Origin: Octopus vulgaris
Taxonomy: Eukaryota
NCBI GenBank assembly: GCA_951406725.2
Contig: OX597823.1
Location: 75,330,001-75,394,000, forward strand
Length of the DNA stretch: 64,000 nucleotides
Reading direction: 5' to 3'
In this document: one piece after another, positions 5,017 to 62,983 of the stretch
Position numbering within the stretch: position 1 is the first letter of the stretch
Layout of the letters: each line of letters opens with the position of its first letter
Notes under the pieces: generated by a model
Databases searched by the model: none
Seen by the model: the letters and a program-made list of their open reading frames with translations, nothing else
Told to the model about the DNA's origin: nothing
Program-made: the position numbers and the translations under genes

Positions 5017-5499
5017 CTATATATATATATATATATATATATATATATATATATATATATATATAATGGGTTGAGGAGGAATAATTCATGTGCGTATTTT
5101 CTAAATTTGAAAATGTACGCAGAAATAAAACGCATTGTCAAAATGTTTTATATTAGTTAAAAAACGAAAGATTTTTGCTCTACAGGGCAGTGCGTTTTTA
5201 TTGATTTTAGTGAATTTTCAGATCATTAAAATGGCATGTCAAGGGGACAAATCTTAGCATCTTCGACACGATTTGCTCTTTGCATTCATCGATATCACGT
5301 TGGAAAGAGCAGCCAAAACCTCACTCTAAAACCATATTAAATGTTCTTACAGCAACAGAAGGGAAGACAACAGAATATATATATATATATATATATATAA
5401 TATTAATTAGAGACAGAACCACTATTATGCAAATCAAACAAAGAAATACTTAATCCGATACATAAAAAAATTTATATAAATTAAGTAAAATTAAGTTAT

Positions 5500-5545
5500 C
5501 CACTACAATTGTTTCTTGTCACTTCTAAGGACATTCATCATGTGG
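5500..5545 (-). ncRNA. Inverted hammerhead copy with core mutation (ATGATGA)
   Basis: Reverse complement of 5612-5657 with the first core C changed to A. Confidence 0.6.
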
Positions 5546-5611
5546 TTTACAGACCTTCTATTCAATTTTAAATTGACTTCATAATTTAAAATTGAATAGA
5601 AGGTCTGAAAA

Positions 5612-5657
5612 CCACCTGATGAATGTCCTTAGAAGTGACAAGAAACAATTGTAGTGG
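5612..5657 (+). ncRNA. Minimal type I hammerhead ribozyme
   Basis: CCAC-CTGATGA-a-TGTC[cttagaagt]GACA-a-GAAAC-AATT-GTA-GTGG: stem I CCAC/GTGG, intact core, palindromic stem III ACAATTGT, GUA cleavage triplet. Confidence 0.8.
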
Positions 5658-6255
5658 ATAACTTAATTTTATTTAATTTATATAAAAATTTTTATGTATT
5701 GGATTAAATCTTTCTTTGTTTGATTTGCATAATAGTGGTTTTGTCTCTAATTAATATTATATAATATTTTATTATAAAATTGGATTCAATCCTAAATCTG
5801 ATTTTTCCCTATAAATTTGGATTTATTCCCTAATATTTATTATTATGTATATATATATACATACATACACACACACACACACACACACACACACACACAC
5901 ACACACACATATATATATATATATATATATGTAAGGAGTGTAGGTATCGGAAATCAAGTGGTTAGGGCTCATGAAGCTGCTTTTGAGATTCATGCTCTTA
6001 AGACACATATAGAGAGGGAGCAATGCTTCAAAACACCGCTCGCTGTTAGTTTTCGTGCTGCAAAAATAGGAATTTTGTATTTAAAGTCGGATCACATACC
6101 GGTGGATCAACTAAGTTCCATGAAGCAAAATTGAATCAAATTTTTCGCAAAAATCCGTGTCAAACGGACAAAGAAATGGCGGAAAAATCGATTTGTTATG
6201 AAACAACTCTGGTGAACCACCTTCAATCAATGGCCAAGGTTCAGAAACTTGGGGC

Positions 6256-59908: not shown

Positions 59909-61254
59909 ATATATATATATATATATATATATATATATATATATATATATATATACATATCTATATATTTACAAGTGTGTAAATGCATATATATCAACAT
60001 ATATTTCTATATGCATAACATAGAGATGTATGTACATATATATATATATATATATATATATATATATATATGCATATTTATAGAGAAAGGAAAAGTAATG
60101 TAGAGAGAGAGAGAGGAAGGAGGAAATAAATAAAGAAAGAAAGAAAGAGAAATGTAGGTGTGAAAGATAGAGAAAAAGAGAGAGTGAGCAGAAACTGGGG
60201 GTAGAAGACATATATACATAAGAGAGAATTCAGAAACCGTTAAGCGGAGTCTCCTTCAGGAACTCTTGGAATATTAGCTCACTTTTGCGCGGGTTTTATA
60301 AGCAACAGTAATAATCATTTGAGATATGTTTAAATGAATAAATAATGTAGATTTATACATTTTGAAAATTGATGGGATCATTCCCCTTCTAATGTAATGA
60401 TGTGCTGTATCTAGATGAAAAATTGAGTGAAAATCGTCTTGGGTTCTGTCAGGGGACAAAATATGCGTTACAATTTAGAGTCAAATAATCACGTGAAATG
60501 ACAAGACAATCTTAACAAGAGCAGGAGAGAATAAATAGAGAAATAAAAATATAAATAGATAAATAAAAAAAAAATATAAATAATTTGTTATATGATATGG
60601 CTGTAAAAATGAAGTAAAATGCGAACAATATATTTCTTTTTTACGAAAAATGGATGGAATAAAATATGCTAGAAATTGTTTGGGAGTGTTCTTGAGAAAA
60701 ACACACCTCGATATAGGCCATCGGTAATAAACAGGATGTGAGTAAAATATGTAAAGAAATGGTGCAAGAACGGTCGGAAAATATGACATACAAATAGGTA
60801 AACGTGTCGGTGGAAGTCCAGAGACTTCGGTTTGTACCATATGGGTAGAGAACACATGTGTGCAGTTAGAAAGTCAATTTTTGCAAAATCTGGAAATGTG
60901 TATGGGGAGAAAATCGAACATATACACAATAACCGATTTACATTTGAGAGAAAGAACTCGATTACCAAAAGTAAAACAGCGAATGACAAAATTCCTGGAA
61001 CTAAAGACACACAAATTGAATCAAAGAACTTATATTCTTCTCTAAAATTATGGGAAAGTACAAACATATATTCACGCGCACCCACTCATTGATACATATT
61101 CTCTCTCTCTCTCTCTCTCTCTCTCTCTCTCTCTCTCTCTCTCTCTGACACACACACACATATGTATATAACACAGTAACGATAGAAATAAATGTTAATA
61201 TTGTATTGAAGATAAAATCCCTACGTACGCAAATATCAAAGTGTTCCTATAATG

Positions 61255-61470
61255 GTTTCAAATTGTTTTGCTACTAAGACAACTTGTGGGAGGGGATTAA
61301 TTCGATTACATTGACCAAAGTGTGTAGCAAGTATGTATTTAATCGGTCCCGAAAGGATGAAACGGGTAAAGTCGACCTCGGTGGAATTTGAAGACAGGAC
61401 ATACAGACGGACGGAATTCCGCTAAGTATTTCGTCCGGCGTGCTAACTATTCTGCCATCTCACCGCCTTG
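61255..61470 (-). mobile_element. Family A SINE
   Basis: CCCGAAAGGATGAAA...GTCGACCTCGGTGGAATTTGAA...TTCTGCCATCTCACCGCCTT. Confidence 0.82.
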
Positions 61471-62388
61471 TACCAAGTGTTCCGATAATGTAATGCACCA
61501 ACATTTTTGAAACAATAAAACTTGTGGTGTAGACAAATTAAGCTGCTGATTATCCGTTTATTACAAGAGGCCTTGATCAATGAACTTTAGGAAATACCCG
61601 CATCAATTCAAAATAGAATTATCCATTTTAATCTGTTTAGGCGTGAAACAGATTGAAATGGTTCCTAGAAAAAGCTATCAGACATATCAAAAAGCCTTTT
61701 AGGAAGTGTTATATTTGTAAGAGTTTTTCCCCACTGTATTGTGGCTTCTTTTTATTCATATTTCCATTAGAGTCCAATCTCTTTTGCATACATTTCTTGT
61801 GGCAGAAGTTATGTTTATATTAATTATATATCTTTATCGAAATGTATAATTCCGTTTATTTAGCTTTAATGCATTTATAAACTCTGTATCATATTCGCCA
61901 ATGACCAACATCATCATCATCATTCAATGGTTTCAATCACAAATATATAATAGGATATTAATATTTCTGAGAGCATTGGCTAAAAGTAATAAAGAAAACA
62001 TATGAACGATGGGAATGATATAAATATAAAAAAGAGGATTATGAATATTTTTTTAAAAATTTATACTGAAGACATTCAAAATTTTACGTTACACTGCTGT
62101 GAGATTCAGCTCGTACATTTCTCAACATTTTAAAATTAGTACGTGTGCTTAATTGTCAATCGCCTTAACTTTGGAAAATATATATGTTGATGATATTCAA
62201 CTTCAATATATATATATATATAATATATAAGAGAGCTTATATATTAGAGAGAGCTTATATATAAGAGAGCTTATATAAAAAACACACATTCATATTTATA
62301 GACATATAGTAATATATCTCTATATTTCTGCCAGTCTCTGTCTGTCTGTCTCCCTATATATATATATATATATATATGTATACATATA

Positions 62389-62983
62389 TTGGTAAAAATG
62401 GTAAGAATACAAAAGAATGAAAGAGACCTCGATATTATGTAAATAGAGGAATTTATCTGTAAATGTAATACGTGACAATTATTTGGATGCCGGGGTGGAA
62501 ACCCACACCGCCATCTCCTCAGTTATCCGGCCATCGTAAAAATGCTATGAAAATAACTGAATAACGGATAACTGAATAAATTGCGGCGTGGACTTCCACC
62601 TCGGCATCAGAAATTCGGAGTTGTATCATGGTTACCGAATAATTGTCACATATTGCATTTACAGATATATATGGTGCCCCAGCATGGCTGCGGCCTTCGG
62701 GCTAAAACATTTTTAAAGGATTTTAAGGATGTATATATATATATATATATATATATATATATATATATCCTTAAAATCCTTTTAAAATGTTTCAGCCCGA
62801 AGGCCGCAGCCATGCTGGGCACCATATATATCTGTAAATGCAATATGTGACAATTATTCGGTAACCATGATAAAACTCCGAATTTCGGATGCCGAGGTGG
62901 AAATCCACGCCGCCATTTATTCAGTTATCCGTTATTCAGTTATTTTCATAGCATTTTTACGATGGCCGGATAACTGAAGAGAT
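62389..62983 (-). mobile_element. Nested inverted-repeat element with degenerate hammerheads (family 5) and captured SINE tail
   Basis: Inner IR 62455-62529 / 62565-62666; outer IR 62513-62730 / 62767-62983 around (TA)n; cores CTGAGGA (62516-62522, -), CTGAATA (62572) and CTGAAGA (62974); GAAATTCGG...CCGAATA stem III; tail 62389-62454. Confidence 0.75.

Follow-up and report, generated by a model that had tools for sequence, protein, structure and literature searches.

The window analysed here comprises 64,000 nucleotides of Octopus vulgaris DNA (assembly GCA_951406725.2, contig OX597823.1, positions 75,330,001 to 75,394,000, forward strand), is 31% GC and rich in (TA)n, and contains five elements, named E1 (5403-5846), E2 (23258-23501), E3 (26921-29477), E4 (50227-51427) and E5 (62390-62665). 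A search of the 2.80-Gb assembly (227 contigs) found all five to be multi-copy. We consider it highly probable that E1, E3, E4 and E5 are the hammerhead-bearing ends of four families of Penelope-like elements (PLEs), likely of the Hydra clade, with E2 likely a fifth, and that E1 is without a GT-AG segment kept by its long relatives, the likely reason being that the spliced 5' leader of the element's own mRNA served as its template. The layout of the elements is given in Table 1. Head-to-head pairs with a tail on one arm only were found in E1, E3 and E5, as described in the original prediction for this window.

Table 1. Features of E1 to E5 and of the adjoining segment (window positions; UTR, untranslated region; ORF, open reading frame; RT, reverse transcriptase; SINE, short interspersed element).
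Feature	Position	Strand	Description
E1 left (inverted) arm	5403..5575	-	intron-less; exon junction 5555/5554; core C3A; ends at first 3' end site, in (TA)n 5375-5403
E1 exon-1 remnant	5576..5602	+	in long copies followed by GT donor and ~1.1-1.3 kb segment
E1 exon 2	5603..5846	+	hammerhead (stem I 5612-5615, core 5616, GAAA, palindromic stem III; predicted GUA cut after 5653), AT-rich segment, ~85-nt tail, then (TA)n
E2	23258..23501	+	old family, relatives 75-81% identical; core mutated (CTTAGGA at 23356), first stem I pair broken; then (TA)23
E3 left arm	26921..28608	-	3'UTR and intact hammerhead (core 26985), short end
E3 right arm	28609..29477	+	3'UTR, intact hammerhead (core 29347; predicted GUA cut after 29385), tail, then (TA)n
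Second E3 insertion	57861..59908		3'UTR only, without hammerhead (stops ~75 nt short of its core); after 100-N assembly gap
E4 ORF remnant	50227..50349	+	last ~35 codons of RT/GIY-YIG ORF (50236-50349)
E4 3'UTR and hammerhead	50350..51427	+	intact, core 51361, short end; predicted GUA cut after 51390; 4.1-kb (TA)n directly beyond
E5 head-to-head pair	62390..62665		left arm (-) with tail, core 62522 present, GAAA and stem III lost by deletion; right arm (+) with changed core
Non-E5 segment	62666..62983		unrelated SINE-like fragment and secondary inverted duplication copying part of E5

Hammerheads were searched for with a type I descriptor (stem I of at least 4 pairs, CUGANGA, stem II, GAAA, one stem III pair, NUH). 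Four arms in the window were intact by this descriptor (cores 5616+, 26985-, 29347+ and 51361+), whereas 200 block-wise dinucleotide shuffles gave 0.015 on average, and these four arms, which belong to E1, E3 and E4, are predicted ribozymes that fit the type I (minimal) hammerhead motif. E2 and E5 failed the descriptor, their cores or stems having been altered by mutation. None of the E5 arms in the window is intact: one has lost GAAA and stem III by a deletion, and others have a changed core or are cut off. Relatives of both elsewhere in the genome show hammerhead cores and stems, those of E2 with a long stem II insert and a GUU site. The hammerheads of the original prediction are thus real, but the fold that it assigned to every element stands in the four intact arms and not in E2, E5 or the E3 copy at 57860-59908. 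No hammerhead family was among the Rfam matches listed (150 of 235 at E≤1), nor was one found at gathering level in 26800-29600; the Rfam matches, all below gathering score, were miRNA and snoRNA families driven by microsatellites and hairpins and were rejected. Minimum free energy folds of the monomers do not give a hammerhead (z from -1.4 to +0.6), as is expected, because minimal PLE hammerheads cleave weakly, as dimers, and are thought to be dimer-dependent (PMC4209133). Among the E1, E3 and E4 hammerheads, that of E3, which has a stem III of 4 bp, would be the strongest candidate for activity as a monomer.

Density was estimated from 40 stretches of 10 kb picked blind at round coordinates (400 kb). 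Five intact arms were found, against 0.15 in 20 shuffles; they belong to four families, none of them E1 to E5. (TA)5 was present within 260 nt of four of these five arms, against 1505 of 7840 background positions (19%), and within 300 nt downstream of descriptor-passing arms in 93/95 cases for E1, 68/68 for E4 and 10/12 for E3. Both the association with (TA)n and the targeting of TA repeats that had been proposed were borne out. The blind sample gives ~12 intact arms per Mb, and the window is therefore ~5 times richer than is typical. By extrapolation the genome would hold intact arms in the order of 10^4 (five counts allow roughly 11,000-80,000); the large load foreseen in the original prediction stands at this order, but not the density from which it was projected.

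A first look gave 731 candidates for E1, 723 for E2, at least 1000 for E3, 741 for E4 and 757 for E5, and none of the families is single-copy. Identities, which rest on 40 scored candidates per element, were 100% to the window over ~170 nt for all candidates of E3 and E4, 96-99% for the best matches of E1, about 78-93% for E5 and 75-81% for E2, whose copies have up to ~550 nt of upstream sequence in common. With exact patterns, at least 1504+825 arms were counted for E3, 1618+527 for E4 and 183+50 for E1.

Full-length relatives of E3 and E4 carry a single ORF with RT plus a GIY-YIG domain at the C-terminus, as in endonuclease-bearing (EN+) PLEs. Copy L157, to the 3' part of which the window E4 is 97% identical, consists of a hammerhead, a 727-aa open frame (stop to stop), ~1 kb of 3'UTR and a second hammerhead; the E3 copy L355 is a tandem that comprises an ORF, 3.1 kb, a hammerhead and a 722-aa frame. 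The ORFs (710 aa in E4, 722 aa in E3) have YRDD and Y(T/I)G motifs, and the hammerhead of the full-length copies lies 150-165 nt above the frame. In such copies the tail runs on into the 5'UTR and ORF and is therefore the start of the next unit. Partial tandems (pLTRs) and an inverted, 5'-truncated copy with a tail at one end, both described PLE traits (PMC8557442), were seen in L157, L152 and L355. Pieces of such ORFs were also found for E1, as a GIY-YIG C-terminus ~1.6 kb above exon 1 on the same strand (L506 with L479) and an inverted RT-thumb/linker piece abutting another copy (L354), and for E5, for which L402 has a same-strand GIY-YIG end at ~1 kb upstream of its hammerhead and L392 has a piece in inverted orientation. 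All 150 scored tblastn matches to the C-terminal part of the E3 protein were 95-100% identical, and a protein search gave 1938 relatives among 7994 scored candidates. The E3 and E4 ORFs were not recognised by Pfam; a 43%-identical homolog carries PF01541.

The mobiliser of Penelope type postulated in the original prediction is supported, since natural copies of E1, E3, E4 and E5 join hammerheads to RT/GIY-YIG ORFs. The same copies speak against its view that the elements are non-autonomous and mobilised in trans. Its statement that the window holds no such ORF is nearly correct, except for the codons kept by E4, which starts near 50227 and not at ~51350 (its proposed extent was ~51350-51428). 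The families, called unrelated, are so in their hammerhead DNA, but their parent proteins are homologous (43% identity between E3 and E4).

Assignment to a clade was made by motifs, with reference proteins compared by eye, and points to Hydra as the likely one. E4 has RWK and E3 RWR; both have DKT, CxCX5C, CxxC and CxH, the E1 piece has CxCX5C, CxxC and CxH, and the E5 piece CxCX5C and CxxC. A ~700-aa single ORF with RWK, DKT, a CxCX5C linker, CxxC and CxH is described for the Hydra clade, whose elements also carry a hammerhead near the 3' end, insert into (TA)n, form partial tandems, have an inverted 5' copy and bear a tail on only one of their ends (PMC8557442); this motif set, the (TA)n insertion and the 3' position of the hammerhead were all found here. 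A reading as Neptune clade, to which motifs had first pointed, was dropped because the proteins match the definition of Hydra in PMC8557442. E1, E3, E4 and E5 would thus be ribozyme-bearing terminal repeats (pLTRs) of Hydra-clade PLEs. The original prediction had left open whether its families were catalogued. The kind is, and the clade includes Hydra-1_Obim from Octopus bimaculoides (PMC8557442); E1 to E5 appear to be new families of it, and six short motif probes (E3/E4 protein and hammerhead motifs, one E1 and one E5 linker motif) gave no match in the supplement of PMC8557442. The hammerhead of Hydra-1_Obim is unlike those of the E1-E5 families, whereas stems I and III of a coral Hydra record in that supplement, by eye, nearly match those of E4. 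The low-complexity 3'UTRs are long here in comparison with the Hydra clade (1.0 kb in E4, 3.1 kb in E3, ~2.7 kb in E1). In O. vulgaris 31 recently active Penelope-like families have been reported, in a main text in which 'hammerhead', 'ribozyme' and 'intron' do not occur (PMC13282606).

Three side observations concern these families. Besides E1, E3 and E4, 15 further hammerhead clusters were seen in ~1.9 Mb of genome sequence (L003, L087, L093, L141, L157, L160, L217, L227, L230, L231, L385, L462, L494, L495 and L507), and a part of them show long stem II inserts or AUA/GUC sites; L231 has the end of a Hydra-type ORF directly above its hammerhead. The E1 parent ORF (L354:6657-7682) has a long asparagine-rich insert after the RT thumb, and such inserts are also described in rotifer Penelope ORFs (PMC3846280). 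At L319:480-1160 an E3 tail, an E4 hairpin and E5 pieces are nested in one TA tract, which indicates that the families insert into each other's TA flanks.

Most E1 copies, both window arms included, begin a few dozen nucleotides above the hammerhead. A minority extend farther upstream; in these a different sequence ends in a T-rich AG exactly at the switch point of the short form, and the 5' piece of the short form is found farther up, followed by GT. Judged from its copies, E1 is an intron-less form from which a GT...AG segment of ~1.1-1.3 kb, situated directly above the ribozyme in long copies, is precisely missing. Among 12 copies with the upstream exon-1 context, ten continue with GT (GTATGT in 7, GTACGT in 2, GTGTGT in 1) and in nine of these ten a T-rich AG follows at a distance of 664-1315 nt (1093-1144 in 7). 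Both other copies are joined, the first exactly and the second with a loss of 8 further nucleotides. Genome-wide, exact patterns gave 183 joined arms against 50 unjoined, and reversed-pattern controls gave 0. The genomic copies thus display a GT donor, a T-rich AG acceptor and exact removal, as for a spliceosomal intron flanked by the splice-site donor and acceptor consensus.

The joined arms were also characterised at their ends. The match to the long form above the junction is 14-37 nt (14 nt being demanded by the search pattern itself) in 76 of 77 joined arms, and 38 unjoined arms extend 41 to at least 1400 nt upstream. The 3' ends of joined arms fall at two places, ~150 and 230-250 nt below the junction, and unjoined copies have the same two; an inverted partner is present in 57 of the 77. 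Joined E1 arms are therefore best described, on this genomic record, as likely cDNAs of the spliced 5' leader of a sense mRNA. PLEs are described as keeping introns after transposition (PMC8557442, PMC3846280, PMC2377424), a described trait and not a formal criterion of PLEs, from which E1 departs by its 183 joined against 50 unjoined arms. To account for this trait, an antisense template has been proposed. The Hydra section of PMC8557442 names neither a leader intron nor intron-less copies. The closest parallel is Penelope of Drosophila virilis, which has a leader intron starting 46 nt after the transcription start (PMC2377424) and ending at helix I of the hammerhead (PMC4209133), as well as inverted repeats with a one-sided tail; its intron measures 75 nt (PMC2377424), against 1.1-1.3 kb for the E1 segment. 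Reports of intron-less PLE copies and of octopus hammerheads were not found in the literature, which was judged mostly from titles and the openings of abstracts.

Several points weigh against splicing as the source of E1, or against the PLE assignment as a whole. In the G haplotype exon 2 begins with G and both segment ends share AGGT, so a microhomology deletion could give the identical junction. Because this haplotype is ambiguous, the junction of the haplotype beginning with A, in which the overlap is only AG, was predicted, and 122 joined matches to it were found, with the linked downstream variant. Six exon-2 haplotypes each occur joined and unjoined, and a tree of 116 arms (76 joined, 40 unjoined) requires 18 label changes, at least seven of them forced by starred branches, with a bootstrap that is not settled and rows in which some insertions are represented by both arms and at least one locus appears two times. 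The haplotypes and the tree together argue for many losses of the segment, all at the same two points. Haplotypes could, however, have been spread by gene conversion among long and short copies, and one junction, mentioned above, is imprecise. One exactly joined arm (L482) reaches ~330 nt beyond the usual 5' limit, which is what a spliced read-through transcript would be expected to produce. No recurring foreign exon 1 was seen for E3, E4 or E5 among the matches listed (100 of 1504 for E3, 100 of 527 for E4, and sets of 100 of 783 and 44 of 44); splicing is therefore apparent for the E1 family only. For E1 and E5 only ORF pieces, and no complete ORF, were recovered. For E2 no ORF was found by tblastn or profile, apart from one weak profile match on the other strand: its upstream query gave 14 matches and no ORF, weak matches in L129 (E~1.4) were discounted, and an earlier upstream query was rejected because it matched an unrelated repeat. 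E2 fits the pattern of the others and is likely a fifth PLE family.

Short copies outnumber long ones (183 against 50 in E1, 1504 against 825 in E3) and have fixed ends, which is also the picture that independent non-autonomous ribozyme retroelements would present if retrozyme- or SINE-like masters used the PLE protein in trans and short E1 were one master lineage. Non-autonomous PLE derivatives are known from Chlamys (PMC8557442) and as vertebrate retrozymes (bioRxiv 10.64898/2026.07.22.740005), the intron-less Penelope promoter is still transcribed (PMC2377424), so that short copies could re-amplify, and E2 lacks a link to an ORF. The elements resemble the non-LTR retrozymes of the same preprint in being short, non-coding and PLE-related with a type I hammerhead. 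Those, however, are head-to-tail tandem units, whereas E1 to E5 are dispersed solo or head-to-head ends of autonomous families; the non-coding head-to-tail tandems without an ORF of their own that define such retrozymes were not found, and four of the five families have an ORF. Moreover, the tree does not resolve joined E1 arms as one lineage, head-to-tail arrays of the short unit were not seen among the E1 loci listed, and the short copies are without the sequence below the RT start sites that the RNA of an anole element requires (PMC11167929). We therefore regard trans-mobilised masters as improbable, and the best reading of the short copies is that each family's own element gave rise to them, as truncated or leader-only products.

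An antisense RNA, or a circular RNA formed by hammerhead cleavage and ligation, has been put forward as a PLE template (PMC3846280, PMC4209133), and intron-less copies could then arise through RNA-to-RNA copying of spliced mRNA. Head-to-head junctions with palindromic centres are common here, as the antisense self-priming model expects (PMC3846280). Yet none of the copies examined starts or ends at the predicted cut site; their 5' ends lie above stem I and their 3' ends 28-200 nt below the predicted cut. Splicing requires a sense transcript, and the extra RNA-copying step is unsupported, which makes such a template very unlikely. Repeated deletion at the DNA or cDNA level, by template jumps at AG/AGGT microhomology, finds some footing in the AGGT at both segment ends of the G haplotype, in the many microhomology joins of PLE insertions (seen here and in PMC3846280) and in the imprecise junction, but is hardly probable, since the same two points were used in six haplotypes with an overlap of only AG in those beginning with A, the ends fit donor and acceptor consensus, and deletion leaves the stop of joined copies within 37 nt upstream unexplained.

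The 5' ends of short E3 and E4 copies form sharp pile-ups at an AG that sits directly above helix I and 4-10 nt upstream of the core (29341-29342 for E3 and 51349-51350 for E4 in the window), in a TAG-C context common to E3, E4 and E5. Among the matches listed for E3, 94 of 100 (of 1504) lose the upstream sequence within 3 nt of the AG; against these 1504, intact E3 arms of the commonest haplotype number 825. For E4, 527 arms differ at the fifth base upstream against 1618 intact, and the 5' ends of intact arms are spread over 24 to more than 1300 nt (30 of 30 examined). The AG of the pile-ups may mark the start of transcription or a 3' splice site whose first exon is very short, or it may be a hot spot of fold-back at short palindromes. 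Spliced forms of E3, E4 and E5 were also sought by upstream-mismatch patterns and rejected, as the rows listed were inverted junctions, direct TA joins and short fillers. In contigs of three runs guessed to be RNA and of one larger run, no intron-like joint was found on an E4 tandem stretch; the depth of such contigs is unable to rank its parts, and the outcome speaks neither for nor against splicing.

A mechanism can be proposed by analogy with PAc, a Poseidon-clade element of Anolis. In vitro, its reverse transcription begins at two adjacent internal sites of the RNA, which set the extent of the tail, and AT-rich sites are where both DNA strands are cut; the process does not depend on hammerhead cleavage but does require sequence below the start sites (PMC11167929). 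PAc shares with the octopus families the two 3' end sites that define the tail, copies that span the uncut hammerhead and an AT-rich target, and differs in its clade and in that the E3/E4 hammerhead, 150-165 nt above the frame, does not overlap a start codon. The Hydra protein would nick (TA)n and start reverse transcription inside the RNA at two sites below the hammerhead. A start at the 3' copy of these sites in tandem read-through RNA would yield long, intron-keeping copies with many 5' truncation points, and a start at the 5' copy in promoter-initiated spliced mRNA would yield short leader copies ending near the transcription start. Should sequence below the start sites be required here too, as it is in the anole element, the latter would be dead ends. 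The ribozyme would have been uncut in the copied RNA, since copies span the predicted cut site, and copying from spliced RNA implies that the template was likely sense, at least for E1.

How PLEs transpose and why their introns are kept is a standing question; the meaning of intron retention has been called unknown (PMC8557442), and the choice between antisense and unspliced sense template was left open by Arkhipova et al. 2013 (PMC3846280). That exactly intron-less arms exist by the hundreds, in the usual head-to-head arrangement with one tail, argues for spliced sense RNA as a possible template, and these arms provide a natural marker for testing the mechanism of PLEs. In a wider form, to which we assign an even chance, PLEs would make two sense-RNA products, intron-keeping copies from read-through RNA and short leaders that arise from spliced mRNA initiated at the promoter, with priming at the 5' copy of the internal RT start sites; E1 would be the genomic record of this, the 5' pile-ups of E3 and E4 above helix I would be transcription starts, and most solo hammerheads of animals would be dead-end leader copies, not random truncations or retrozymes. 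If true, the question of template polarity would be decided against the antisense model, and intron retention would be accounted for by selection in favour of copies able to rebuild a promoter-bearing tandem. What appears new is the repeated exact loss of an intron in short leader copies; the kind of element is known, and the hammerhead load, though large (many families, intact arms in the order of 10^4), is similar in kind to loads reported before for other animals. Being young and intact, the E3 and E4 elements lend themselves directly to biochemical work.

The remaining features of the window were recorded as follows. The fragment within 62666-62983 is presumably SINE-like, and a 16-nt motif of it occurs 38 times in the 400 kb. 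It is followed at 62769-62983 by the secondary inverted duplication (96%), centred on (TA)18 at 62732-62768; the resulting secondary palindrome of 470 nt (96%, 62513-62983) duplicates part of E5 together with this fragment. At 1600-1783 (TA)36 passes directly into 112 consecutive A residues, which may be an assembly artefact or a retro-tail; 630 nt of (AT)n follow. Mariner-type transposase remnants lie at 3997-4356 (by eye) and 6202-6903 (PF01359). Beyond E4, the 4.1-kb (TA)n array occupies 51428-55561 and is followed at 55562-57727 by a fragment of a long interspersed element (LINE) with a 435-aa RT frame (PF00078) and a (TATCAAAG)n end, after which comes the 100-N gap.

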